The notes beneath the pieces are model-generated. The model was not told where the DNA came from. It did not search any database and saw only the letters and a list, made by a program, of their open reading frames with translations. Position numbers and translations under genes: made by a program. From Escherichia phage vB_EcoM_112, in the sequence record NC_024125.2: a DNA stretch of 64,000 bases. One strand, given 5' to 3'. Below, one piece after another: positions 5,308 through 57,805 of the stretch (position 1 is its first letter; each line of letters starts with the position of its first letter).

Positions 5308-5359
5308 CACTTATCCTCGTTTGGTTTCGGGAATATTATACTCCAATAATCATAAAGCT

Positions 5360-5377
5360 AAAGGCCCGAAGGCCTTT
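5360..5377 (-). terminator. CUUCGG tetraloop hairpin immediately after the stop of the lipoprotein ORF
   Basis: Plus strand AAAGGCC-CGAA-GGCCTTT; transcript loop UUCG; overlaps stop at 5377-5379. Confidence 0.5.
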
Positions 5378-15904: not shown

Positions 15905-15934
15905 ATTATACCATACTCATTTTGGAAAGTAAAC
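15905..15934 (-). promoter_or_regulatory. T4-type early promoter (GTTTAC-N18-TATAAT)
   Basis: Plus gtaaac 15929-15934, attata 15905-15910. Confidence 0.6.
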
Positions 15935-15950
15935 CGTTTAAATGAAAAAA

Positions 15951-15968
15951 GGACTCCCGAAGGAGTCC
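15951..15968 (-). terminator. intrinsic terminator-like CUUCGG hairpin after soc
   Basis: GGACUCC-UUCG-GGAGUCC on transcript followed by UUUUUUCAUUU; 9 nt after soc stop. Confidence 0.65.
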
Positions 15969-15976
15969 TTGAATTA

Positions 15977-16255: not shown

Positions 16256-16774
16256 TCAATAACCTCGGTCTTGACGTGCGAAGTTTTCGGCATTTTTCAG
16301 ATAATAAAGTTTAAAGATTTCTTCAGCCGACATTCCAAGAGCAATAAATTTATTCATGAAAAAGTGAAATTGGTCAATCAGTTCAAATTTAATTTCAAGC
16401 TGATCTTCAGGAGATAAATCTTGAATTTTCTTGGATTGCATTTCAGAATAACGTTTCTTCCAAGGTTTCCATACGGCAGAAGCTTCTTTTTCACCATTAC
16501 TCATACCACCAAGAGAAGTATATAGCTCGCGAGTTTCGTCTGCGATATAATCGTCTTGGTTTCGCAGCCAAGCAAGAACTTCTCCTGCAGTTTCAAGTGA
16601 ATCGGGATGACGATTTGTTTCTGGTTTATCATTAGCCAAACGAATCTGTAAATGCCGCTGCATGTCAAGCATAACCTGTAGTGGGTCAATATTGTGCATA
16701 ATATTCTCAGCATATGCACGATTTGCTTTATCAACACCTTCGATCAAATGAGCACATTCATTAAAGTGAGCCAT
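16256..16774 (-). CDS. 56: dCTP/dUTP pyrophosphatase gp56 (MazG-like), about 172 aa
   Basis: MAHFNECAHLIEG N-terminus from ATG at 16772-16774; EASAVW...ELIDQFHF motifs. Confidence 0.85.
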   Translation of the reverse strand: MAHFNECAHLIEGVDKANRAYAENIMHNIDPLQVMLDMQRHLQIRLANDKPETNRHPDSLETAGEVLAWLRNQDDYIADETRELYTSLGGMSNGEKEASAVWKPWKKRYSEMQSKKIQDLSPEDQLEIKFELIDQFHFFMNKFIALGMSAEEIFKLYYLKNAENFARQDRGY

Positions 16775-22576: not shown

Positions 22577-22921
22577 TTAAAAGAATTTAAATTTTTTCTT
22601 TGACCTTTTATTAAATGCATCTTGCAGTTGCATTGTAATACATTTTTCTACATGAGGAGCTAACTCAGCTTTTCTTTCTTGGTCAAGAACAGCAAAGTCC
22701 ATTACGACTTTTCCATCAACCCAATCTAATTTTGTCACATACACAATGTGTGTAGAACCATCTTCTAGTTTAATGACAATCTCCTGGATAACATTTTCCA
22801 TAGCGGATTTAATTATCTTAAGAGACTCATTAAAAAGACGTTCTTTTCTTTCTTCTTCCCCCTCCGAAGAGGGGGATTCATCGATAATTTCTAGATCTAA
22901 ATCTAAATCATCTTTATTCAT
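22577..22921 (-). CDS. 40: gp40 head-assembly accessory protein, 114 aa
   Basis: ATG at 22919-22921 gives 114 aa; synteny between 41 and uvsX. Confidence 0.7.
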   Translation of the reverse strand: MNKDDLDLDLEIIDESPSSEGEEERKERLFNESLKIIKSAMENVIQEIVIKLEDGSTHIVYVTKLDWVDGKVVMDFAVLDQERKAELAPHVEKCITMQLQDAFNKRSKKKFKFF

Positions 22922-24095
22922 TAAATTCTTCCATATCACTTAACTGTTCGAGGTCAGTTTCTAAATCAGCAGCTGATTTACTTTTACTTTCTGGAGATTT
23001 AAATTTTTCAACCTTTGAGTTAATCAATTCATCAACTTCAGCTTCAACAATTTCATTACTATCAATAGCACCTAACTGATAAGCACGTTTAATAGCATCT
23101 CGGAATGGTTGATGCTTAAATAAAGGACCCCAGAATGTAGTGCAGTTAGTATCTTTTGCACGCCAAGATTTTTCTTCGCGAATCATCTCGCCGGTTTCTT
23201 CGTCAAGAAATTCACGAGCATACCAACCATTCTTAGGTTTTACTACAAATCCTAATTCTAGAGCCATATCTAACAATCCAGAATAAGGATCGATACCACC
23301 GTCAAATTTAACATCAATAAAGAATTTACTTTTTTCTTTAACGGTACGAGATTTTTCTACATTTAGAACAAATTGATACCCCTGAAGATCAGAACCATCT
23401 TTAATCTGGCGTTTACCGATAATGAATACGGTATCAGCCGAATACATTACGCCTGTACCACCTGTCATCACGGTTTTACTAAACATTTCAATTGTTTCAA
23501 TTGTATGGTTAACCGCAACGCACGGAATATTTTTAATGCTAAAATAAGGAGTAACAATACGGAATAATGACTTCAGTGATTTAGCACGAGTCATATCTGC
23601 CACAGATTTTTCATTCAAGGCATCTTCCGTTTCTTTCTTGGAAGCCATATTACCAATTGAGTCGATGAATACAATAACTTTTTCACCGCGCTCAATAGCT
23701 TCAAGCTGATTCACCATATCAATTTTCAGCTGTTCAACTGATTGAATTGGCGTATGAATTACACGTTCCGGGTCAACTCCCATGGATCGCAAATAAGCTG
23801 GAGTAATACCAAATTCGCTATCATAGAATAGACAAACCGCGTCAGGATATTTGTTCAAATATGCCGCAACCATAGTCAAAGACATATTTGATTTAAAGTG
23901 TTTAGAAGGCCCTGCGAAAATAGTTAAACCAGACTGCATACCGCCATCAATCGCACCAGAAATAGCAATATTAAGCATTGGAATTTTTGTACGAATTACA
24001 TCCTTTTCATTAAAGAATTTAGATGTAGTCAGTTCAGCAGTCATTTTAGAAGTGGAAGCTTTAATCAAACGGGATTTTAAATCTGCAATAGACAT
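22914..24095 (-). CDS. uvsX: UvsX recombinase (RecA-like), 393 aa
   Basis: Walker A GPSKHFKS; RecA fold layout; ATG at 24093-24095. Confidence 0.9.
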   Translation of the reverse strand: MSIADLKSRLIKASTSKMTAELTTSKFFNEKDVIRTKIPMLNIAISGAIDGGMQSGLTIFAGPSKHFKSNMSLTMVAAYLNKYPDAVCLFYDSEFGITPAYLRSMGVDPERVIHTPIQSVEQLKIDMVNQLEAIERGEKVIVFIDSIGNMASKKETEDALNEKSVADMTRAKSLKSLFRIVTPYFSIKNIPCVAVNHTIETIEMFSKTVMTGGTGVMYSADTVFIIGKRQIKDGSDLQGYQFVLNVEKSRTVKEKSKFFIDVKFDGGIDPYSGLLDMALELGFVVKPKNGWYAREFLDEETGEMIREEKSWRAKDTNCTTFWGPLFKHQPFRDAIKRAYQLGAIDSNEIVEAEVDELINSKVEKFKSPESKSKSAADLETDLEQLSDMEEFNE

Positions 24096-24148
24096 TCATT
24101 TTTTCCATAGGCATCATTATATTTTCCTCACTGGTTAAAGATAGAGTA

Positions 24149-24172
24149 ATTATAACACAATAAATTTAGGCA
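24149..24172 (-). promoter_or_regulatory. candidate MotA-dependent middle promoter upstream of uvsX
   Basis: Transcript TGCCTAAA, 12 nt, TATAAT. Confidence 0.45.
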
Positions 24173-25015
24173 TTAATCAACTGCTATTGGATGAATAGCA
24201 TTAAACTTATGAAATGCTTCTGATTTTTCTTTACGCGAAACGCACATGCGAAGAACCTTTAATGGCTCGTCTTCTTCACCCAACGATTTTCGTTTTTCAA
24301 TATTAGAAGTTTTCCAACGAGCTTGCTCTGGAAACTCTCTATTGATTTGCTCAAGCGCTCTATTATGTTTAGAATTACTACGAATTGAACTACACCCGCC
24401 AGGAGCTTGTGCTTTTCCAGATACAACTAGATATTTGAACAAGGCCAAATGCGGATAACCTTGATTAATTAAATTGAGAAATGCATACATATCTTCGCAT
24501 AAATCAATTTTTCCATACCCAATTTGTTCTGTCGTAAGTTTTCCGAGGTCATACCATGTATTCGTGAATCCATATGAATTTTCACGATAATTACCCCAAG
24601 ATGAAGTAATTTTAAAAATTGGTAGACGAGCATGACCGTGATAATACCCGCAATCCATGGCATCTTCAACATATTGAATCAATTCATAGAACTGTTCACG
24701 AGTTAATTGATTAATTTTATCTACGCGCCGTTTATCGTCTCTCTTTCGTATTGAACTCATACGGATAGTAGTATCATCGTCAATCATCCAGATTCGTTGA
24801 CCTGCATACATATCAGTAATTGCTTTACGAGTACCGGCAATTCCATTAACATCATCAGGAATAGTTACAATTTTAGCTCTAGACCCATAGGCATCATAAT
24901 AAGCTTTTTCTTCGTGTTCACGCACTATAATATGCGGTTCATAATCAGTCGGAAACATATCAAGGGCAGAAACTGCCCCGACACGTTGATAACTTGGAAT
25001 TACGAATTGAATCAT
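24173..25015 (-). CDS. glycosyltransferase (DxD, GT-A-like), 280 aa, at the locus where T4 has beta-gt; possibly beta-glucosyl-HMC-alpha-glucosyltransferase
   Basis: MIDDD DxD motif; ATG at 25013-25015 overlaps gene 42 stop; not alignable to my recollection of T4 beta-gt (351 aa). Confidence 0.6.
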   Translation of the reverse strand: MIQFVIPSYQRVGAVSALDMFPTDYEPHIIVREHEEKAYYDAYGSRAKIVTIPDDVNGIAGTRKAITDMYAGQRIWMIDDDTTIRMSSIRKRDDKRRVDKINQLTREQFYELIQYVEDAMDCGYYHGHARLPIFKITSSWGNYRENSYGFTNTWYDLGKLTTEQIGYGKIDLCEDMYAFLNLINQGYPHLALFKYLVVSGKAQAPGGCSSIRSNSKHNRALEQINREFPEQARWKTSNIEKRKSLGEEDEPLKVLRMCVSRKEKSEAFHKFNAIHPIAVD

Positions 25016-25752
25016 TTCCACTCACCTTTATAGTCTTTTTTCACAATATGAGTTTCGCCAGTATTCCACCAATGATCAACCAAATAAAAATGACGAGAAT
25101 ATACATGAAGACTTCCAACATTCCATATAATAGAACCTGCTTTATACTGACGAGTTGAATCGCCTGCATTCAAATCAGATACTAATTTATCTAATACGTA
25201 TTTTTGCCATGCATAATCATTACGGAATCCGAAGACCACGTCATTTGAGCGCATGCTTACTACCGCATTGACTTTCTTATCACGAATCAGGTACTGTACT
25301 GTATTAGTACACATGAAATCTGACATACCATCTTTATTGTAGTCAAACTGCATAGATGGACGAGTATAAATCATGATACCACGTCGAGAATCAGGATTTT
25401 GACCAAGTTCAGCTAAACACATATCATACTGGGCATAGTTATCTTCTGACCAAATAGCCCAACCATAATTCGAGTTAATTTCGCCTTTAGAAGATGCTAC
25501 CTGCTGCCAAATCTTTGGTGTTTCACCTGGAATATCTTTAACAAACAAACTCTTAGATTTATACCATTCAAGTTCACGCTGAATGTATTCATCATTAAGA
25601 GCGCCAAAAATAAACGGTTCATCTGCTACAAATGATGCGCCAATAATTTCAATAGTTTTAACACCAGTTTTATCAACTACGAAATCTTTTTCTTTTAATG
25701 CAAGCCCCAAATGAAGACGGATTTCTTCAACTGTCATAGAGTCACTAATCAT
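25012..25752 (-). CDS. 42: dCMP hydroxymethylase gp42, 246 aa
   Basis: Thymidylate-synthase-like fold motifs; length. Confidence 0.9.
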   Translation of the reverse strand: MISDSMTVEEIRLHLGLALKEKDFVVDKTGVKTIEIIGASFVADEPFIFGALNDEYIQRELEWYKSKSLFVKDIPGETPKIWQQVASSKGEINSNYGWAIWSEDNYAQYDMCLAELGQNPDSRRGIMIYTRPSMQFDYNKDGMSDFMCTNTVQYLIRDKKVNAVVSMRSNDVVFGFRNDYAWQKYVLDKLVSDLNAGDSTRQYKAGSIIWNVGSLHVYSRHFYLVDHWWNTGETHIVKKDYKGEWK

Positions 25753-26829: not shown

Positions 26830-26859
26830 ATAGTACCATAGAAGAACAGGGATGTAAAC
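26830..26859 (-). promoter_or_regulatory. T4-type early promoter within a repeated promoter-leader cassette
   Basis: Plus gtaaac 26854-26859, atagta 26830-26835. Confidence 0.55.
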
Positions 26860-26947
26860 AGTTTTGTGAAAAAATTTTTAGGGAATCCAAAGGGTCCAGA
26901 ATCATCTCTTTTTCATAAGTATAGATTTATATTACTTGTATGAAAAA

Positions 26948-26963
26948 GGGACCTGGAGGTCCC
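26948..26963 (-). terminator. terminator-like hairpin after gene 43
   Basis: GGGACC-UCCA-GGUCCC on transcript followed by UUUUUCAU. Confidence 0.6.
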
Positions 26964-26976
26964 TAGATTTATTCTA

Positions 26977-29691: not shown

Positions 29692-29709
29692 AGCCCGAGT
29701 TATTAGGCT
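29692..29709 (-). promoter_or_regulatory. gene 43 translational operator hairpin (gp43 autoregulation)
   Basis: Transcript AGCCU-AAUAACUC-GGGCU immediately upstream of the gene 43 RBS. Confidence 0.75.
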
Positions 29710-29733
29710 CTTGATATATTATACTCCAATTAA

Positions 29734-29747
29734 GGGGCCGAAGCCCC
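29734..29747 (-). terminator. CUUCGG tetraloop hairpin between regA-distal ORF and gene 43
   Basis: GGGGC-UUCG-GCCCC on transcript. Confidence 0.5.
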
Positions 29748-29751
29748 TTGC

Positions 29752-29973
29752 TTAAATTAGTACTATTTGTCGGGTGAAAATTGTCAATCCATCTGCATTA
29801 ATTGACTTAACGACTGCAGTAAAGTGTTTTTGTTCTGGGTGAACTAATTTTTGAAATTCTACCTGAAATTTTAGTTGAAGGTTTTCTGGTAAATCGAAAA
29901 GTGTTTCTGTTGCAGAAAGATTATATTTTTCTTTAAGAGACGCCATGTATTCTTGCGGAGTTATAGCAGTCAT
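29752..29973 (-). CDS. hypothetical protein, about 73 aa, between regA and gene 43
   Basis: ATG at 29971-29973 one nt after regA stop; weak RBS. Confidence 0.4.
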   Translation of the reverse strand: MTAITPQEYMASLKEKYNLSATETLFDLPENLQLKFQVEFQKLVHPEQKHFTAVVKSINADGLTIFTRQIVLI

Positions 29974-31869: not shown

Positions 31870-31903
31870 AATTTCCTCATTCAAGTTTTAGTGTAAATTA
31901 TAA

Positions 31904-31917
31904 AGGGCCGAAGCCCT
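31904..31917 (-). terminator. CUUCGG tetraloop hairpin between gene 45 and gene 44
   Basis: AGGGC-UUCG-GCCCU on transcript followed by UUUAUAAUUU. Confidence 0.5.
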
Positions 31918-31920
31918 CTA

Positions 31921-32607
31921 TTAAAAATCATGGGTAGAATCAGCTTCAAGAGCTACTACATAATTCGCATGTTCACCTTCAAATTTAGCAGCACCTTGTT
32001 TACCTTTTGCCCAGAGCAGAAGTTTATAATTTCCTGGTTGCATTTTCATATTTGCCATATTGATAATGAAATTAAATGTATTTTCACCATCATAATCACC
32101 AAGAGTCAAAGAATATTTAACACGGGTCAGAGCAGAATCTTCTACTTTATTAAAACCGTTAATTACGATTTTACCTTCTTTTACTGTGATAGCAATTGTA
32201 TCAATCTGCAGACCACGAGATACACGCAACAGTTGTTGAAGGTCTTCAGCTTTAATTTCAGTAACAACAGATGCTACCGGGAATGGAATTGGTTTATTAG
32301 GAGCAACTACTGTACTCGGATCGGCTGCTGGCCAAAAAATTGTTGAGCGGGCATCAGCAATTTTAATATTTCCATCTTCTGACTGGGAAATTTCTGCATC
32401 ATCATTAACTAGAGACAGAATACCGAGAAAACCGTTCAAATCGTAAATTGCTACATCAAAATCAATAGTGTCAGAAATATTTGCTTCCGCGTAAGTTGTA
32501 CCATTAACTGCGCGAGTCATAATAAATTGACCGGATTTAAGCATAATACCAGAGTTAATAGTAGCGAAATTTTTAAGCAGAGCAGTAGTATCTTTAGACA
32601 GTTTCAT
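31921..32607 (-). CDS. 45: sliding clamp gp45, 228 aa
   Basis: Length and synteny; middle promoter upstream. Confidence 0.9.
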   Translation of the reverse strand: MKLSKDTTALLKNFATINSGIMLKSGQFIMTRAVNGTTYAEANISDTIDFDVAIYDLNGFLGILSLVNDDAEISQSEDGNIKIADARSTIFWPAADPSTVVAPNKPIPFPVASVVTEIKAEDLQQLLRVSRGLQIDTIAITVKEGKIVINGFNKVEDSALTRVKYSLTLGDYDGENTFNFIINMANMKMQPGNYKLLLWAKGKQGAAKFEGEHANYVVALEADSTHDF

Positions 32608-33250: not shown

Positions 33251-33305
33251 GTTTTTCCTCCATAGAGATTATACTCTAATAAATTAAAGCATAATCTCTT
33301 ATAAA

Positions 33306-36451: not shown

Positions 36452-36610
36452 ATATCAAGAACCGTCATTGAAATGCAAAATAAAATTATTGAAATAAACC
36501 CATCTGGTGTGCTAAAGAAACCAATCCAGCATGCTCTAGTGAATAGATAAAATGCAAGAAAAAGTATCACATATCCAAGAAATATCATTATATCAAACTC
36601 CGTATAAAGC

Positions 36611-36630
36611 TAAAGGGCCGAAGCCCTTTA
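36611..36630 (-). terminator. CUUCGG tetraloop hairpin overlapping the alpha-gt stop
   Basis: AAAGGGC-UUCG-GCCCUUU on transcript. Confidence 0.5.
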
Positions 36631-37830
36631 TTTTGTAATAATGTCAAACTGTTCTTTAAAGCAGAAGCTTGAATCTTGATGTTGATACAAAAATTCATAT
36701 GCTTTTTCTCGCTCACGGTCATAAAGAGCTCGGTCAGATGACAGTTCTTTAATACGTTCAAACGTTGATTCCATATCATTTTCATCAAACCAAATGATAC
36801 CGCTATCATGCGAGGTCAAAGGAGTATTATCAACACGGAATTTTAAATTTTCGCCAGTAGATTTCCAAAATACCGGAATTGTTCCACATGCACCAAGCTC
36901 GAGATGAGTATATTCTAAAGAACGTTGCAGATATTTTTTATCCAACTTACTCAACTGATAACCAAATCCGGATTTACTCATGCGTTCAAGCATTTCGCTA
37001 TTTACATAACGGTCAAGAATTTGCGTTGGCAAATTAGGAGCAATTTTAATTTGGTCTACTTGATGAAGACGATAATACTCGTATGGAATTCCTTTTTCTT
37101 TAATAGGAATGAACGCTGGAGAACGTTCCAGACCTTCCATAATAGTACTTAGTCCTGCAGGTTTAAGATGTTTTTCGTGAAAATCAAACATCTGGTAAAA
37201 ACCTTTCCATGTAGTCGTACGACCAATCCAACGGTTGATATTCATGTTAATTTCAGAAACATCTTTCCAGTAGGTTGATCGAACCTTCGCAATATCCATA
37301 GGAGGCTGAAAATTATATACTGTAGGTGCTTCTTCAATATCATCAAACAAAGAAACTGTTTCAGGATACCATTCTTTCATCAGAACTTTATTAAAATCAC
37401 CATTATCAGAATGGCTAAAAATAACATCAGCTCGACGAACAGTTTCTTCTAATCCCAAATTTCGACGCAAAGAAAGAGAGGAATGGTCATGTTGATAAAC
37501 CACAACACGAACCGAAGGTTTAATGTTATCAATAATTTTTTTATAGTTATTAATAGTATCTTCTTCAACTGAAGTAGCAGGAACTGAATTGATAATTAGA
37601 ATATCACAATCATTTACCAGCTTAAGTGTTTTATCGTATTCTTTTGCCAATAAAACCGGAATTGAAAATGATTTATAATCATGTGCACAGTTACGAGTAA
37701 ATGATTTATCTTTAGCATAAACCAAAGTTACTTCATGACCATTTTTAATAAACCAATCACGTTGCTCAAGAGAAAATTTAGTTACACCGCAACCTTCAAG
37801 ACCTCGAGCCATAAAAATACATACTTTCAT
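36628..37830 (-). CDS. agt: alpha-glucosyltransferase (hmC DNA alpha-glucosylation), 400 aa
   Basis: Length and N-terminus MKVCIFMARGLEGCGVTKF as I recall for T4 alpha-gt. Confidence 0.85.
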   Translation of the reverse strand: MKVCIFMARGLEGCGVTKFSLEQRDWFIKNGHEVTLVYAKDKSFTRNCAHDYKSFSIPVLLAKEYDKTLKLVNDCDILIINSVPATSVEEDTINNYKKIIDNIKPSVRVVVYQHDHSSLSLRRNLGLEETVRRADVIFSHSDNGDFNKVLMKEWYPETVSLFDDIEEAPTVYNFQPPMDIAKVRSTYWKDVSEINMNINRWIGRTTTWKGFYQMFDFHEKHLKPAGLSTIMEGLERSPAFIPIKEKGIPYEYYRLHQVDQIKIAPNLPTQILDRYVNSEMLERMSKSGFGYQLSKLDKKYLQRSLEYTHLELGACGTIPVFWKSTGENLKFRVDNTPLTSHDSGIIWFDENDMESTFERIKELSSDRALYDREREKAYEFLYQHQDSSFCFKEQFDIITK

Positions 37831-37854
37831 TTAATATCCTCTTTGTTTTGGTTT

Positions 37855-37878
37855 ATTTTACCAAAAATTTATAAAGCA
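37855..37878 (-). promoter_or_regulatory. candidate MotA-dependent middle promoter upstream of alpha-gt
   Basis: Transcript TGCTTTA, 11 nt, TAAAAT. Confidence 0.5.
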
Positions 37879-37880
37879 AT

Positions 37881-37900
37881 ATAGGAGCCGAAGCTCCTAT
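37881..37900 (-). terminator. CUUCGG tetraloop hairpin upstream of the alpha-gt promoter
   Basis: AUAGGAGC-UUCG-GCUCCUAU on transcript. Confidence 0.5.
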
Positions 37901-38073
37901 CCACATAATACGCCATACAGAGGCTCGTTAGAACTTTTAAATTTTATGCGCTTATATTTTATAGTTCCTTCTGCTTTAGCTTTATCATGAGACTCTTTAA
38001 AGCGTCTCATCATTTCCTCTTTAGAGAAACGAATTTTATTATAATCTATTTCAGAAGTCTGGGTGTTCATCTT

Positions 38074-40251: not shown

Positions 40252-40267
40252 AAGGGCCGAAGCCCTT
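40252..40267 (-). terminator. CUUCGG tetraloop hairpin overlapping the stop of ORF 40266..40466
   Basis: AAGGGC-UUCG-GCCCUU on transcript. Confidence 0.5.
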
Positions 40268-40466
40268 AGCTAAACTTTTTGGCACCCTTCCAGCCTTCGT
40301 ACATCATTGCGACTGATATTAATATTGCTCCTGAGCAACTTGAATATTTGTGATTCCAAAACCAGTTTAGAAAAACTTCGTCATCAATACCTTGGGCTAT
40401 CATATTTTCAAAGAACTGACGACGAGCTTCGGCAATTCGCTGCGATAATTTAGATTCAGGATTCAT
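40266..40466 (-). CDS. hypothetical protein, 66 aa
   Basis: ATG at 40464-40466. Confidence 0.5.
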   Translation of the reverse strand: MNPESKLSQRIAEARRQFFENMIAQGIDDEVFLNWFWNHKYSSCSGAILISVAMMYEGWKGAKKFS

Positions 40467-40605: not shown

Positions 40606-40938
40606 TCAGCTGTAACGATAACACTCGTTTGATTTACGTTTAGCAACTCGTTGAGATGTATTATAATCTAATTCATCGTCGATGTAAACATCTTTTTTCA
40701 ACTTTCTCACTTCATTACGTAATTGACGATTTAATTCATTCTTAACCTCTGAATCAACACCTCGCATACGTCGCCATTTATCTGAGCGAAAAATGTTTTC
40801 AACCATATCTTTATGACTTACACCATCAGGAGCTTTACGCTTTCCGAAATAGTCATAATCACGAACTTTCAAGTCTTTACGACGATACGTTTTACCCATG
40901 GAGTTTAATTTCCTTAGCAACTGAACTAAATGCAGCAC
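40606..40938 (-). CDS. hypothetical basic protein, 110 aa
   Basis: Arg/Lys-rich. Confidence 0.5.
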   Translation of the reverse strand: MLHLVQLLRKLNSMGKTYRRKDLKVRDYDYFGKRKAPDGVSHKDMVENIFRSDKWRRMRGVDSEVKNELNRQLRNEVRKLKKDVYIDDELDYNTSQRVAKRKSNECYRYS

Positions 40939-41134: not shown

Positions 41135-41215
41135 AACTTTGTGAAAAATATTTTAGGGAATGATAAGAAAGGAACGATAACTTAGAATGGTAATATACAG
41201 AATGTGAGAAAGAAA

Positions 41216-41228
41216 GGCCCAGAGGGCC
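41216..41228 (-). terminator. GC hairpin with U-rich tail after nrdH
   Basis: GGGCC-UCU-GGGCC on transcript followed by UUUCUUUCU. Confidence 0.5.
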
Positions 41229-41232
41229 CGTC

Positions 41233-41556
41233 TTAATCTTCTATGATATCTCTATCATATCCAAGTGAAATGAGAGTTTCTTTGAAGTGTTTAATGTTCT
41301 TTTGTCTAGAATCATTAATGAAAATGACTGGATAACGAATGTTAAGAGATGTGAATCCAGCGCGTTTAGCAAGAGATACAATCAGTGGACGATCATACTC
41401 AATCTTACCGTTATTTGTAAGAACTTTATAGAAAGTAAAAGGAGCATTGAGCTCCTTTAGAAGTTTTGTAACTGATTGACATCCAGGACAACGACCTACT
41501 TCATCTGGAATTCCATAGACTTCAATCTTATTCTTTAAGTTCGAGTTTTGTTCCAC
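41233..41556 (-). CDS. nrdH: glutaredoxin-like NrdH-type redoxin, about 107 aa from GTG start
   Basis: CPGC active-site motif; no in-frame ATG; GTG at 41554-41556 has AAGGAA RBS. Confidence 0.6.
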   Translation of the reverse strand: MEQNSNLKNKIEVYGIPDEVGRCPGCQSVTKLLKELNAPFTFYKVLTNNGKIEYDRPLIVSLAKRAGFTSLNIRYPVIFINDSRQKNIKHFKETLISLGYDRDIIED

Positions 41557-43469: not shown

Positions 43470-45279
43470 GTTTTACTCGTTTTACCATTTCTTTCATTTT
43501 ACCTAAATTCCATGGAACAACGCTAGGAGTTCCAAGATATCCGCATGTTCTTCTTATGGTATTCATCTTTTTAGGATCAGTTTCTCCACAAATAGAACAA
43601 ACAAATCCGTTTTCAGTAGGAGTCATTTCATGGGTACTTCCGCATGTAAAACATTTATCTACTGGCATATTAACACCAAAATAATCTAAATGTTGTGCAG
43701 CATAATCCCATACAGCCTCAAGACCTTTTAAGTTATTTTTCATATCAGGAAGTTCAACATAAGAAATGTGACCACCTGTTGCAATGAAATGATACGGGGC
43801 TTCGCGAGAAATCTTTTCAAACGGAGTAATATTTTCTTCTACTGAAACATGGAAACTGTTAGTATACCAGCCTTTATCAGTAACATCCTTTACACTTCCA
43901 TATTTTTCGGTATCAAGTTTACAGAAGCGATAACACAAGTTTTCAGCAGGAGTAGAATACAAACTAAAAGCAAATCCGGTTCTTTCAGTCCATTGTTTAA
44001 GATGAGTATTCATTTTAGTTAAAATTTCTTGTCCAATATCACGACCGACAAGAATATTCAATTCGTGAATACCAATGTATCCTAGAGACACTGAACTTCT
44101 ACCGTTTTTAAATAACTCAATTATGTCGTCATCAGGTTTAAGACGAACCCCGAATGCACCTTCTTGGTAAAGAATAGGAGCAACAGTTGCTTTAACTCCT
44201 TTTAAGGAACTAATTCTACACATCAAAGCTTCAAAACACAAATCCATTCGCTCATTGAACAATTCGATAAATTTCTGTTCATTGAACTGTGTTCCAATAT
44301 AAGAATCTAATGCGATACGAGGAAGATTCAGTGTTACAACACCAAGATTATTACGTCCATCAAGAATTTCATTACCAGTCGAATCTTTCCATACGCTCAA
44401 GAAACTACGGCAACCCATCGGAGAAACAGGAACAGATGAACCAGTGATAGCTTTATTGTTCTTAGCTGAAATAATATCAGGATACATCCTTTTGCTTGCG
44501 CACTCTAGAGCAAGCTGTTTAATATCATAGTTCGGGTCGTCTTTATAAAGATTAACACCTTCTTCAACGAACATAACAAGCTTAGGGAAAATAGGAGTTA
44601 TCCCATCACGACCAAGACCTTTAATACGATTTTTCAGAATTGCTTTCTGAATCATTCGTTCAGTCCAGTCAGTTCCCGTACCAAATGTAATTGTTACAAA
44701 AGGCGTTTGTCCGTTTGAACTAAAGAGAGTATTTACTTCATATTCATAAGCTTGGAATGCATCGTATACGTCTTTTTCTGTTTTAGACTGGGCATAATTC
44801 AACGCATCAGCGATTTGCCATTTTTCTGCATCCTCAATATGTTTTGCATAGGTGCGTTTAACATAAGGAGAAAGTACTTTATCTACATTCGCAAAAGTCG
44901 TTCCGCCGTATTGGTGAGAAGCAACCTGTGCAGTAATTTGTGCCATAATTGCAGTAGCAACGCCAATTGATTTAGGAGTTTCAATCTGTGCATTACCTAG
45001 CTTAAATCCGTTTTCAAGCATTCCTTTTAAATCTACTAAACAACAATTAGTAAATGGAAGAGCAGGGGAATAATCAATATCGTGGAAATGGATAATTCCG
45101 CTTTCATGCGCTTTCATAATAAAAGACGGGACCATATTTTTGGCAATGTGTTTAGACACAATACCAGCCATAAGGTCCCGTTGAGTTGGAAAAACACGAG
45201 AATCTTTATTAGCATTCTCGTTTAAAAGGTCTTTATTAGTTTTATGAATCAATCCTTCAATTTCTTTTTCAATTGTCAT
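43462..45279 (-). CDS. nrdD: anaerobic ribonucleoside-triphosphate reductase NrdD, 605 aa, uninterrupted
   Basis: C-terminal glycyl-radical and zinc-ribbon region (CFTCGS...CSICG, RRTCGY); single continuous ORF. Confidence 0.9.
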   Translation of the reverse strand: MTIEKEIEGLIHKTNKDLLNENANKDSRVFPTQRDLMAGIVSKHIAKNMVPSFIMKAHESGIIHFHDIDYSPALPFTNCCLVDLKGMLENGFKLGNAQIETPKSIGVATAIMAQITAQVASHQYGGTTFANVDKVLSPYVKRTYAKHIEDAEKWQIADALNYAQSKTEKDVYDAFQAYEYEVNTLFSSNGQTPFVTITFGTGTDWTERMIQKAILKNRIKGLGRDGITPIFPKLVMFVEEGVNLYKDDPNYDIKQLALECASKRMYPDIISAKNNKAITGSSVPVSPMGCRSFLSVWKDSTGNEILDGRNNLGVVTLNLPRIALDSYIGTQFNEQKFIELFNERMDLCFEALMCRISSLKGVKATVAPILYQEGAFGVRLKPDDDIIELFKNGRSSVSLGYIGIHELNILVGRDIGQEILTKMNTHLKQWTERTGFAFSLYSTPAENLCYRFCKLDTEKYGSVKDVTDKGWYTNSFHVSVEENITPFEKISREAPYHFIATGGHISYVELPDMKNNLKGLEAVWDYAAQHLDYFGVNMPVDKCFTCGSTHEMTPTENGFVCSICGETDPKKMNTIRRTCGYLGTPSVVPWNLGKMKEMVKRVKHA

Positions 45280-52997: not shown

Positions 52998-53966
52998 TTA
53001 TTTCAGAAGAGTAACCTCAGCAATTTCTCCCCAACCATTTTTGTCGGTCATAATAAAGTCAGCAAGATAAAGAGCAGTACGCAGTGAAACATTGCGTAAA
53101 CGATTAACATTGACTTTCATCCATGATAATGCTTTATAAGTTTCTTCATCAGAAAGACCACGCTTTTGCATCATGTCGGTTGAAAGAATAACATCTTCAA
53201 CCCTGACCATAATTTCTTCATTAGTGTGAACACCCAAATCTAAATAAACTGAGCGGGAAACTAATGCTTGTAAATGTGGAGCAAGTTTAGTACCACGGTC
53301 TAATTCGCGGTCAATGTCAACGTTTGTGATAAAAACAATCGTTCCTTTAAATTCAAACTCACGCTCAATGCCTTTTTCTTCTAAGTAAGAAGATGCGGTA
53401 CTCCAGCAGACTTTACGGGTCTCTCCAGTGTCCAGAGCAGCTTTCAGAAGATTAAGAATGTCCATATCAGAGAAAACATCCACATCATCAATCAAAAGGA
53501 CAGAATTCTCTTCACGATTATTCCAAAGCTGCTCATAAAGACCAATACCAGAGATTTTACCGTTAATGCTTTTATATTCAATGTATCCATTATCATTTGC
53601 TTTATTTAAAGCTTTATCTAAAGAATACGTTTTACCAATACCTGCTGCACCAGAGATAATTAATGAACGAATGTTTCCGTTAATAATACCATTCGTCATC
53701 ATTCCCATAACATTAAATCTTTTATTAATGCGGGTTTTCATATCTTCATATGATTCTTTAACTTCTTCAACTTTTACACCATCATATGAAATGTCTGATT
53801 TGTAAACCCAAACACCGCGACGTTTACCGTCAATTTCAACAAAAACTTTACCATCTCCTTGTGCATCTACCGGAGCATTATCTGGGAACCATTCGCCTAA
53901 GAGCTCAAAAGTTCCAGAGATTTCTTTACCGAAGTAGATACCCTTATTGATAGTTACAGTTTTCAT
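52998..53966 (-). CDS. P-loop ATPase (AAA-like), about 322 aa
   Basis: Walker A GAAGIGKT, Walker B LLIDDVD; ATG at 53964-53966. Confidence 0.65.
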   Translation of the reverse strand: MKTVTINKGIYFGKEISGTFELLGEWFPDNAPVDAQGDGKVFVEIDGKRRGVWVYKSDISYDGVKVEEVKESYEDMKTRINKRFNVMGMMTNGIINGNIRSLIISGAAGIGKTYSLDKALNKANDNGYIEYKSINGKISGIGLYEQLWNNREENSVLLIDDVDVFSDMDILNLLKAALDTGETRKVCWSTASSYLEEKGIEREFEFKGTIVFITNVDIDRELDRGTKLAPHLQALVSRSVYLDLGVHTNEEIMVRVEDVILSTDMMQKRGLSDEETYKALSWMKVNVNRLRNVSLRTALYLADFIMTDKNGWGEIAEVTLLK

Positions 53967-54003
53967 TTTATTCTCCAAATCTGTATCAGTAGTTGATAGT
54001 TGT

Positions 54004-54033
54004 ATAGTACCATAAAGCTTTATGCTTGTAAAC
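54004..54033 (-). promoter_or_regulatory. T4-type early promoter within a repeated promoter-leader cassette
   Basis: Plus gtaaac 54028-54033, atagta 54004-54009; leader near-identical to the one at 26792-26835. Confidence 0.55.
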
Positions 54034-54063
54034 AACTTTGTGAAAAATTTTTGAAATAAAAAA

Positions 54064-54081
54064 GGGAGCCCGAAGGCTCCC
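54064..54081 (-). terminator. CUUCGG tetraloop hairpin after the nucleotidyltransferase-like ORF
   Basis: GGGAGCC-UUCG-GGCUCCC on transcript. Confidence 0.55.
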
Positions 54082-54083
54082 TA

Positions 54084-55097: not shown

Positions 55098-55555
55098 TCA
55101 GCCTTATATTCAATAACAGGACATACTTTAGCTTTACGCGCTTTTAAAAATTCGACGATAATCGATTTCTTTGGTTGAATAGGAGGTAAACCTTTATACG
55201 CCCTATCAATATTTTCTAGGTGTAAAGCATAATCCTTTTTCCATTTATAATCTTTATATTTTTCACGCAAATGTGCAGGAATAACAAATGAACCGATAAT
55301 AAGTAAAACAACCAAAAGCGCAAGTATAAATGCCGATGGAAGAAGAGTCCATAAACTACCGAAAATAAGCCAACGTTGTAGGCTTTCTGCACAAATAATT
55401 GTTAACCCTACGAGTATAGCACACCCAAAAATAGAAACGAAAAATGTAGGAATGACAATAGACCAAAAATATGCGCATAGTGTCTTAGGTCGTTGCCATT
55501 CATCGTTAAACAATTTGAATAATTTATAGTGCCAAGAGTTTTCATTAATAATCAT
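55094..55555 (-). CDS. membrane protein, 153 aa
   Basis: Multiple hydrophobic segments. Confidence 0.55.
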   Translation of the reverse strand: MIINENSWHYKLFKLFNDEWQRPKTLCAYFWSIVIPTFFVSIFGCAILVGLTIICAESLQRWLIFGSLWTLLPSAFILALLVVLLIIGSFVIPAHLREKYKDYKWKKDYALHLENIDRAYKGLPPIQPKKSIIVEFLKARKAKVCPVIEYKAE

Positions 55556-55557
55556 AA

Positions 55558-56079
55558 TTATCCTTTCATTGAAGGCGTAACGGTTGTTAAATACTTAATC
55601 ATAGCTTCAGCTTCTGATTTTGATAATGAAATTTCTCCATTGTTTTGACGAATAGAAATAAAATCCGGATGACGGTCACCACCAGCTTTTAAAACACACA
55701 TATAAGTATCAACTTCGCCTTCAATATTTGAAATGATTGAAGCAGTTCCACATGAATGCGGTTTTTGATAAATCAATACAGCTTTTCTTCCACCGTTTGA
55801 CTGCTCATAGGCTTTTAATACATCAAGCAAATCAGTTCTTTTATCAATAGCTAAAATGTTGTTTTCATCTTCAATGTTAAATCCTTCGGATACTTCATAA
55901 AGCGTTACCCATAAATCACCAATGTCAATAACAGCATTTACTTTTCCACGGCTTTTAAGAGTATGACAAATTTTCTTGATTTCGTCATAACTCATTTTAA
56001 TAATATCATCTCCTTGACTAAGGAAGATGTCATTTTTAAATTCAACACGAATTAAACCACTTCCACTTGAAATAAACAT
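55558..56079 (-). CDS. hypothetical protein, 173 aa; paralog of 56086..56640
   Basis: Shared C-terminal motif (KYLTTVTPSM vs TYLDSVIPTM). Confidence 0.55.
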   Translation of the reverse strand: MFISSGSGLIRVEFKNDIFLSQGDDIIKMSYDEIKKICHTLKSRGKVNAVIDIGDLWVTLYEVSEGFNIEDENNILAIDKRTDLLDVLKAYEQSNGGRKAVLIYQKPHSCGTASIISNIEGEVDTYMCVLKAGGDRHPDFISIRQNNGEISLSKSEAEAMIKYLTTVTPSMKG

Positions 56080-57738: not shown

Positions 57739-57768
57739 ATAGTATCACAGCTCAAATGGAAAGTAAAC
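57739..57768 (-). promoter_or_regulatory. T4-type early promoter (GTTTAC-N18-TACTAT)
   Basis: Plus gtaaac 57763-57768, atagta 57739-57744. Confidence 0.55.
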
Positions 57769-57784
57769 CGGTAAAATGAAAAAA

Positions 57785-57800
57785 GTCTCCCGAAGGAGAC
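57785..57800 (-). terminator. intrinsic terminator-like CUUCGG hairpin
   Basis: GUCUCC-UUCG-GGAGAC on transcript followed by UUUUUUCAUUUU. Confidence 0.65.
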
Positions 57801-57805
57801 TAATG

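Follow-up and report, generated by a model that had tools for sequence, protein, structure and literature searches.

The window, by which we mean the whole stretch of 64,000 nucleotides of Escherichia phage vB_EcoM_112 (NC_024125.2) that was analysed, carries eleven hairpins in which a perfect stem is capped by a C(UUCG)G loop. These are very probably the classical T-even C(UUCG)G mRNA hairpins at the 3' ends of cistrons, each with a function set by what follows it. The module that they share is a stem that forms rapidly and strongly resists melting owing to its C(UUCG)G cap. Three of the hairpins have the anatomy of intrinsic terminators, others adjoin middle-promoter motifs, two have no U-tract either here or in any relative examined, and one is the take-off hairpin for the translational bypass of gene 60.

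A strict search of both strands of the window for TTCG enclosed by a perfect stem gave eleven C(UUCG)G hairpins. The stems measure 6-10 bp, and all eleven are in minus (mRNA) sense, with none on the plus strand. When the window was shuffled 300 times with the dinucleotides preserved, CTTCGG enclosed by a stem of 5 bp or more was found 0.11 times on average and at most twice, compared to the eleven observed. The CTTCGG hexamer as such occurred 18 times on the minus strand (5.9 expected). Moreover, UUCG accounted for 11 of the 32 strong tetraloop hairpins of the minus strand, while every other loop was found at most twice. All eleven have a Watson-Crick stem and a UUCG loop with a C-G closing pair. 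A further hairpin at 26947, with a UCCA loop, does not belong to this family. Each of the twelve was found to be the local RNA minimum-free-energy fold, at -10.7 to -17.7 kcal/mol by nearest-neighbour energies with a tetraloop bonus. When both strands of the whole window were searched with the Rfam covariance models at gathering threshold, there was no match.

An earlier note on this DNA had listed at least eleven G+C stems with a CGAA loop on the plus strand, i.e., UUCG in the minus-strand transcript. The family is real. Ten of the listed sites, including that in gene 60, proved to be C(UUCG)G hairpins, but the site at 26948 has a different loop, and the hairpin at 22857 had been missed. Some of the start positions lay 1-4 nt inside the full stems, and the site that had been singled out, 15951-15968, is the G+C core of a larger stem. 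It was also borne out that the hairpins mostly overlap or adjoin stop codons: nine of the eleven begin between -4 and +6 nt relative to the stop of the preceding ORF. As in the T-even hairpins, these nine are intercistronic, in mRNA sense and directly after stop codons. The placement fits a tightly packed genome, UAA or UAG often providing the first bases, and thereby the A-rich base, of the stem.

The window has a G+C content of about 34% and a negative GC skew throughout, and the genomes that matched it belong to Tequatrovirus. It aligned collinearly with T4 (NC_000866) at positions 11-64645, with an identity of 92-98% that was interrupted by indels. All the genes annotated for T4 in the matching stretch (rIIA to vs.8) are on the minus strand; hence the 'CGAA loops' read on the plus strand are UUCG loops in the mRNA. 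All the eleven UUCG hairpins of the window have positional orthologues in T4. The coordinates are collected in Table 1, and the hairpins are referred to below by their first position. The alignment with T4 has 17 breakpoints, two of which fell within 40 nt of a UUCG hairpin, namely the insertion of an ORF at 29755 and that of mobB at 37846. One window hairpin is preceded by an inserted 73-aa ORF where T4 has regA, and mobB is missing beside another: in T4, mobB is inserted between a cassette of the 37881 type and a-gt, and it is absent there in the window.

Table 1. Hairpins and neighbouring promoter motifs in the window, with the terminator score d (a ranking value only) and the location of the orthologous hairpin in T4.
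Feature	Positions	Strand	Sequence and context	d	T4 orthologue
Gene 60 translational-bypass take-off hairpin	2824-2847	minus	AUGGAUAGCC-UUCG-GGCUAUCUAU	-38	gene 60 bypass region; T4 2834-2857, inside annotated bypass region 2803-2852
MotA-box-like AGCTTTA	5353-5359	minus	directly abuts 5360 hairpin; TATAAT at 5335-5340; upstream of gene 39		
Hairpin 39.1/39	5360-5377	minus	AAAGGCC-UUCG-GGCCUUU; first base overlapped by 39.1 stop codon	-13	junction 39.1/39
Early-promoter match behind 15949 hairpin	15905-15933	minus	TTTACT-N17-TATAAT		
Terminator hairpin after soc	15949-15970	minus	AAGGACUCC-UUCG-GGAGUCCUU then UUUUUUCAUUU; UUUUUU tail	+33	junction soc/mrh.2
Hairpin inside gene 40 coding sequence	22857-22876	minus	UCCCCCUC-UUCG-GAGGGGGA; 37 nt past uvsX stop	-40	inside gene 40, after uvsX
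Early-promoter match behind 26947 hairpin	26830-26858	minus	88 nt downstream of hairpin		
Non-UUCG terminator-like hairpin after gene 43 stop	26947-26964	minus	AGGGACC-UCCA-GGUCCCU then UUUUUCAU	+13.5	
Hairpin upstream of gene 43	29732-29749	minus	AAGGGGC-UUCG-GCCCCUU; 2 nt past stop of 73-aa ORF	-10	junction regA/43, 2 nt past regA stop
Hairpin 45/44	31900-31921	minus	AUAGAGGGC-UUCG-GCCCUUUAU; first base overlapped by gene 45 stop; no U-tract		junction 45/44
Middle-promoter match	36587-36611	minus	AGCTTTA-N12-TATAAT; abuts 36611 hairpin		
Hairpin on a-gt stop	36611-36630	minus	UAAAGGGC-UUCG-GCCCUUUA; UAA stop is the first three bases	-14	junction a-gt/47.1
MotA-box match behind 37881 hairpin	37855-37878	minus	TGCTTTA-N11-TAAAAT; upstream of a-gt		
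Hairpin upstream of a-gt	37881-37900	minus	AUAGGAGC-UUCG-GCUCCUAU; a-gt.2 GGA-UAG codons in or next to 5' arm	-19	junction a-gt.2/mobB
Hairpin on stop of 55.3-like ORF	40252-40267	minus	AAGGGC-UUCG-GCCCUU then UUUGG; stop overlaps stem	+3.5	junction 55.3/55.2; T4 40823-40838
Early-promoter match behind 54063 hairpin	54004-54032	minus	AT-rich stretch, then TTTACA-N17-TACTAT		
Terminator hairpin after nrdC.11	54063-54082	minus	AGGGAGCC-UUCG-GGCUCCCU then UUUUUAUUU		
	+50	junction nrdC.11/nrdC.10
Early-promoter match behind 57784 hairpin	57739-57767	minus	TTTACT-N17-TACTAT		
Terminator hairpin after rI.-1	57784-57801	minus	AGUCUCC-UUCG-GGAGACU then UUUUUCAUUUU	+23	junction rI.-1/mobD.5

The hairpins were ranked as terminators by a d'Aubenton-Carafa-type score, which serves for ranking only. 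A simple scanner for terminators and promoters was also applied; it flagged four of the eleven, too little an enrichment to classify them by itself. A literature search for Term-seq or 3'-end mapping in T4 gave nothing usable, and the termination efficiencies spoken of below are what we infer from the sequence. Measured against the tract of about 7-8 nt that marks an intrinsic terminator, the U-tract was adequate behind 15949, 54063 and 57784; it was borderline behind 40252, weak behind 5360 and 36611, and lacking behind 2824, 22857, 29732, 31900 and 37881.

At 15949, 54063 and 57784, five to six U abut the stem, 6-7 U are present among the first 8 nt past the G+C core, and the scores run from +23 to +50, the highest being that of 54063. 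The non-UUCG hairpin at 26947 is similar. The fold of the 15949 hairpin has a z of -4.6. A match to the T4-type early promoter, TTTAC(W)-N17-TA(Y)(W)AT, lies 15-30 nt downstream of each of the three, and the hairpin/promoter cassettes behind 15949, 54063, 57784 and 26947 could be aligned with one another. With a U-tract after the stem, 15949, 54063, 57784 and, weakly, 40252 would act as intrinsic terminators: the hairpin would form in the exit channel of the E. coli RNA polymerase, upon which the weak rU:dA hybrid would melt and the transcript would be released. The early promoter 15-30 nt downstream would then start the next unit.

The tails of a second group (5360, 36611, 37881, 29732 and 40252) read UUUAGCUUUA, UAUAUUGCUUUA, UUAAUUGG or UUUUUGG, and the scores range from -19 to +3.5. 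At 5360, 36611 and 37881 the tail is itself a match to the MotA box, with a -10 hexamer 11-12 nt further on; these are motif matches. Behind 29732 there is a TATAAT 8 nt downstream, followed by the gp43 operator hairpin (29692-29709). The loop sequence GCTTCG was also considered as a MotA box for the gene 43 and gene 44 promoters, but the nearest TATAAT is 15 nt away at 29732 and 6 nt away at 31900, and a spacing of 11-13 nt is required. The terminator anatomy of the 40252 hairpin is borderline; its tail becomes UUUUU if the two paired U are counted. In the T4 copy of this hairpin, a difference of 1 nt upstream shifts the frame, and 55.3 reads through the hairpin.

The same junctions in relatives read GCCCUUUUUGCUUUA and score from +2 to +43. 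This range was found for the relatives' copies of the 5360 hairpin, and those copies of 36611 that were scored in relatives were likewise positive, as opposed to the negative values in the window. Since these junctions score as terminators, the T-rich flank of a MotA box can double as a U-tract, and the copies in the window and in T4 would then be weakened versions of the relatives' terminators. The hairpins followed by a MotA-box middle promoter (5360, 36611, 37881) or by the -10 hexamer of gene 43 (29732) could at best be sites of leaky termination or pausing; the U-tract provided by the T-rich promoter flank is poor. Such a hairpin would mainly mark a stable 3' end for the message upstream, while read-through and the middle promoter would together feed the gene downstream.

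The hairpins at 31900 and 22857 are of a different kind. A U-tract behind them was sought in the window and in the relatives examined; none was found, and the scores were between -8 and -40. For 31900, the score was negative in every relative (-17 to -38), and the fold has a z of -4.0. The tail of the 22857 hairpin is purine-rich, which rules this hairpin out as a terminator; lying within gene 40, it is also under the protein-coding constraint of that gene. A promoter scan next to the two hairpins revealed no obvious promoter for the downstream genes 44, 62 and 40-41. T4 mRNA is degraded by the 3' exonucleases PNPase, RNase II and RNase R. By analogy with known stabilisers, the most likely role of the 31900 and 22857 hairpins would be to block 3'-to-5' exonucleases (PNPase, RNase II), and the heavily used messages upstream (gene 45, uvsX) would thereby outlive the distal polycistronic RNA.

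In gene 60 the same module is the take-off hairpin for bypassing. The 5' arm of the 2824 hairpin contains the take-off GGA and the UAG stop, and it is followed by a 50-nt gap and a landing GGA. Its terminator score is strongly negative (Table 1). This combination was found at 2824 only. The 37881 hairpin, which has GGA-UAG in its stem, was considered as a second bypass site and rejected: the next GGA precedes UAU UAA and lies in the Shine-Dalgarno sequence of a-gt.

We then compare these sites with their counterparts in relatives. After gene 45, a G+C-rich tetraloop hairpin was found in the short 45-44 spacer of all the 15 relatives, down to 54% gp45 identity. As about 0.06 strong tetraloop hairpins are expected per 120 nt (derived from the window scan), this presence is itself evidence. 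The stems are unrelated, the loops being UUCG, UUUG, UACG or GAAA. Six of the seven pairs change on both sides, and 95.7% of the cells are paired, compared with 57-61% after a shift of the partner by one column; the best hairpin was picked in each relative for these covariation sets, so that the pairing arises partly by construction and the figure is inflated. After soc, C(UUCG)G and a U-run were present in 16 of 16 relatives, and the stem, which covaries, exists in five versions. Relatives with as little as about 67% UvsX identity have retained a G+C-rich hairpin 37-90 nt downstream of uvsX, which shows compensated changes in its stem (UCCCCCUC/GAGGGGGA, UCUCCCUC/GAGGGAGA, UCCCCUUC/GAAGGGGA) and UUCG, UCAG, GGAA, UAAG, GAAG or UUUG as the loop.

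A G+C-rich tetraloop hairpin was also seen before gene 43, beside the promoter/operator region, in 14 of 15 relatives (loops UUCG, UCCG, CGUG, UUAC and GAAA); one relative, L017, has a UUG triloop hairpin instead. Relatives, too, may have an extra ORF inserted between regA and gene 43; wherever it occurs it precedes the hairpin, which is kept regardless. Before gene 39, most relatives have a hairpin (loops UUCG, UACG, UAAC, UUAG or GCAA) 0-4 nt ahead of tGCTTtA and 49-54 nt ahead of the ATG, and about 15 of 20 diverged relatives have a hairpin before gene 47 that is directly followed by (t)TGCTTt. After nrdC.11, several relatives have UUCG hairpins with differing stems, mostly with a U-run, while in others the loop is UACG or the hairpin is lacking. 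As some of the relatives examined have no hairpin at this site or before gene 39, individual copies are dispensable. The a-gt and rI.-1 loci that were found are near-identical to the window and carry no comparative information, the 57784 hairpin being identical in the five close relatives found. The occurrence, at the same junctions, of different but compensated stems with UUCG, UNCG or GNRA loops indicates that the structure of the hairpin is under selection.

The orientation of the loop was examined in T4 and in a survey. In the late region of T4, gene 23 is a plus-strand gene and is followed by a UUCG hairpin on that strand; hoc, alt.1 and alt are minus-strand genes, and the UUCG hairpins behind hoc and between alt.1 and alt are on the minus strand. 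For the survey, 185 T4-like phage loci were taken from IMG/VR and each was set in the direction of its query gene; the counts include many orthologous copies and hence are not independent. Among 248 distinct strong tetraloop hairpins of the sense strand, 87 had UUCG and 20 had GAAA; on the antisense strand, UUCG was not among the 14 commonest loops. A U-rich tail was present in 52 of the 87 UUCG hairpins, compared with 6 of 85 antisense images. Moreover, 76 of 95 distinct UUCG hairpins in relatives start between -4 and +8 nt relative to the stop of an ORF that is 50 aa or longer. The orientation of the loop thus tracks the direction of transcription, which argues that the hairpins act in RNA.

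The earlier proposal that these hairpins serve as terminators, RNA stability elements or processing barriers gains support from their anatomy, from the conservation of their positions with covarying stems, and from the orientation of their loops. U-runs had been noted behind several of them, and five to six U do directly follow 15949, 54063 and 57784, as well as the non-UUCG hairpin at 26947. As regards termination, three sites have the full anatomy of an intrinsic terminator together with an early-promoter match, but a convincing U-tract is confined to three or four of the eleven. The suggestion that the hairpins set operon boundaries needs to be narrowed, since two of them, that of the gene 60 take-off site and that within gene 40, are not at such a boundary.

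The hairpins might instead be conditional elements of dual use and not fixed signals, owing to the occlusion of the 5' arm by ribosomes and to the overlap of the MotA box with the U-tract. Because the stems are so close to the stop codons, a terminating ribosome must melt the 5' arm, and translation-dependent behaviour is possible as a consequence. A ribosome paused at the stop would cover the 5' arm, and termination or 3' protection would then depend on the coupling of translation and transcription. At the composites of genes 39, 47 and a-gt, MotA or RNA polymerase present at middle times could alter the read-through of early units. We regard this as an unlikely but tenable account of the family.

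That all eleven are efficient Rho-independent terminators with the single function of ending operons is very unlikely. All of them are G+C-rich hairpins at gene ends, 60% of the UUCG hairpins in T4-like loci have U-rich tails, and the relatives' hairpins before genes 39 and 47 score as terminators. However, a U-tract or a positive score was found at only three or four of the eleven sites, and the proposal fails for at least five. The 45/44 and uvsX/40 hairpins are without a U-tract in every relative examined, with genes 44, 62 and 40-41 lying downstream without an obvious promoter of their own beside the hairpin, and the gene 60 hairpin sits in a coding region that has to be transcribed through.

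We find it hard to believe that the hairpins act primarily in DNA, as inverted repeats of the PeSL/PmSL type that link modules for recombinational shuffling, with secondary roles in RNA. Such a role has been proposed in the literature for these cassettes; those after 15949, 57784, 54063 and 26947 do resemble each other, two breakpoints with T4 lie close to a UUCG hairpin, and the ORF inserted behind regA is found again in relatives, upstream of the hairpin. A cruciform or a patch of homology would, however, be indifferent to whether TTCG or CGAA is on a given strand, whereas the loop is essentially always in mRNA sense and flips with the direction of the gene. The stems differ among the sites and hence offer little homology, and the loops that are selected, UNCG and GNRA, matter only for the stability of RNA. 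The cassettes may have a secondary role in recombination, of which the two breakpoints are no more than suggestive.

A mainly translational role, in which a stable hairpin at the stop modulates termination, ribosome release, re-initiation or hopping, seems to us extremely improbable for the family. The gene 60 copy has a proven role in translation, most of the hairpins start between -4 and +8 nt from a stop, so that the terminating ribosome melts the 5' arm, and a-gt.2 ends with GGA-UAG inside the 37881 stem, like the gene 60 take-off site. When a productive landing codon or a downstream frame was sought at 37881, neither was found, and at the other sites an ordinary SD-AUG start follows 20-90 nt downstream. 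A position near the stop is equally expected of terminators in a tightly packed genome, and the U-tracts and promoters behind the stems speak for a role in transcription. Outside gene 60, nothing was found to support a general function in translation. Finally, although CTTCGG also occurs outside hairpins (7 copies on the minus and 12 on the plus strand), the chance that the hairpins are mere products of base composition or repeated sequence is negligible, given their excess over the shuffled windows and stems that differ from each other and are conserved with covariation in relatives.

The reading that we prefer, i.e., T-even mRNA hairpins whose function depends on what follows, places the window in a known context. 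The C(UUCG)G hairpins of T4 mRNA were described by Tuerk et al. (1988, PNAS 85:1364) and summarised by Miller et al. (2003, MMBR 67:86). CC-UUCG-GG recurs in T4 hairpins, as a terminator or an RNA stabiliser. UUCG hairpins are described as common between the genes of phages, above all in T4, and as stopping reverse transcriptase (after Tuerk et al. 1988), and it was in T4 mRNA that their extraordinary stability was first recognised, in 1988. The window hairpins agree with those of Tuerk et al. in phage group, sites (11 of 11), loop, C-G closing pair, intercistronic placement and proposed roles, and there is no difference in kind, the window being a relative of T4. The family, its use as terminator or stabiliser and the promoter/stem-loop cassettes are thus already known, and the present result matters little as a discovery, this being the family in which the stability of the UUCG tetraloop was first seen. 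It does yield a clean annotation of the boundaries of transcription units for a relative of T4, in which probable terminators are separated from U-less, putative barrier hairpins.

With Rho-independent terminators of E. coli, 15949, 54063, 57784 and (marginally) 40252 share a stem rich in G+C, the tetraloop and at least five U after an ORF; in contrast, seven of the eleven window hairpins have no adequate U-tract, and two of these have none in any relative. Hairpins at the 3' ends of bacterial mRNAs, e.g., REP elements, are barriers to PNPase and RNase II. Like these, 31900 and 22857 are stable stem-loops without a U-tract that end an upstream cistron in a polycistronic RNA; unlike REP-type repeats, those of the window are single short tetraloop hairpins, and their protective role is one that we infer here. 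Conserved without terminator anatomy, the 45/44 and uvsX/40 hairpins are the best targets for tests of 3'-end protection. The 2824 hairpin shares with the gene 60 bypass element the take-off GGA, the UAG, the UUCG-capped stem, the 50-nt gap and the landing GGA. The other ten have neither a landing site nor a coding gap, and 37881 shares only the GGA-UAG in the stem.

PeSL and PmSL cassettes consist of a stem-loop followed by an early or a middle promoter, respectively (Arbiol et al. 2010; Comeau et al. 2014). The same papers give TTTACW-N17-TAYWAT as the T4/PST promoter consensus, tested one stem-loop as a terminator and proposed a role in modular recombination. The order of a PeSL, i.e., stem-loop, AT-rich stretch, TTTACW-N17-TAYWAT, SD and ATG, was found behind 15949, 54063 and 57784 and, farther away, behind 26947. 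Like a PmSL, the stem-loops at 5360 and 36611 (AGCTTTA) and at 37881 (TGCTTTA) are followed by a Mot box and a -10 hexamer, as far as motif matches go. PmSLs were reported for the Vibrio phage nt-1, whereas the hairpin/MotA-box composites described here lie before genes 39 and 47 in T-even-type phages. What is added to the known picture is modest: the anatomy class by class, the 45/44 and uvsX/40 hairpins as conserved non-terminators, and the recurrence of hairpin/MotA-box composites before genes 39 and 47.

Comparison of this region with that of T4 shows the 73-aa ORF of the window to be inserted precisely after the regA stop and before the UUCG hairpin (a C(UUCG)G tetraloop hairpin in mRNA sense). 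Both junctions of the insert read AATTAA/AATTTAA. Comparable inserts of ~220-250 nt occur at the same regA-gene 43 position in several relatives, and in relatives with such inserts the hairpin is constantly located on the gene 43 side. The gp43 operator hairpin, which precedes the gene 43 ATG by ~20 nt, ranks second-best in the regA-gene 43 spacer of most close relatives.

At the hairpin starting at 40252, the window sequence immediately upstream (uuuagcUAAGGGC, 40266-40270, minus strand) differed by 1 nt from that of T4 (uuuagccUAAGGGC, 40838-40843). This difference changes the frame, and therefore the 55.3-like ORF of the window ends on the hairpin, whereas T4 55.3, as annotated, reads through it.

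The a-gt.2 ORF ends in UGU GGA UAG, with the GGA and UAG contained in the extended 5' arm of its UUCG hairpin. The local layout is the same as that of the gene 60 take-off site, where translational bypass begins. After the next GGA (37837-37839) the sequence reads UAU UAA, and hence there is no productive bypass frame; the gene 60-like arrangement at a-gt.2 is probably coincidental.

The four promoter cassettes downstream of terminator hairpins resembled one another, each running from a T-run through AAAAATTTTTCACAAA to GTTTAC-N17-TAnnAT. The one after gene 43 bears an apparent degraded stem, GGACCCTTTGGATTCC, which is reminiscent of the 'half PeSLs' (PeSL, promoter-early stem-loop cassette).

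The 5' arm of the AU-rich hairpin carries a MotA-box-like ATGCTTTAA (MotA box, a middle-promoter element), the 3' arm contains TATAAT, and a Shine-Dalgarno GGAGG lies directly 3' of the hairpin. The hairpin may be a middle promoter that folds up in read-through RNA. In the three terminator-like hairpins with non-UUCG loops, the loops were UUU, UCU, and UCAAU.

Of the T4 elements, segF, mobB, and the nrdD intron with I-TevII are missing from the window phage, and unrelated sequence occupies the places of T4 segA/beta-gt and mobD. These absences and replacements are typical presence/absence differences of homing endonucleases.

Coordinates of the features described in the window
Feature	Window position	Strand	Remark
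a-gt.2 ORF end, UUCG hairpin 37881 and next GGA	37837-37902	-	
gp43 translational operator hairpin	29692-29709	-	AGCCU-AAUAACUC-GGGCU
73-aa ORF, phrog_3826	29752-29973	-	insertion relative to T4
Promoter cassettes downstream of terminator hairpins	26830-26900, 53965-54060, 15905-15948, 57739-57783	-	
AU-rich hairpin, 16 bp	33264-33299	-	T4 46|45.2 spacer region
Terminator-like hairpin	24963-24979	-	non-UUCG loop, U-rich tail
Terminator-like hairpin	41215-41229	-	non-UUCG loop, U-rich tail
Terminator-like hairpin	41438-41458	-	non-UUCG loop, U-rich tail
Sites differing from T4	16257-16269, 24084-25029, 37821-37846, 44741-44744, 55099-56060
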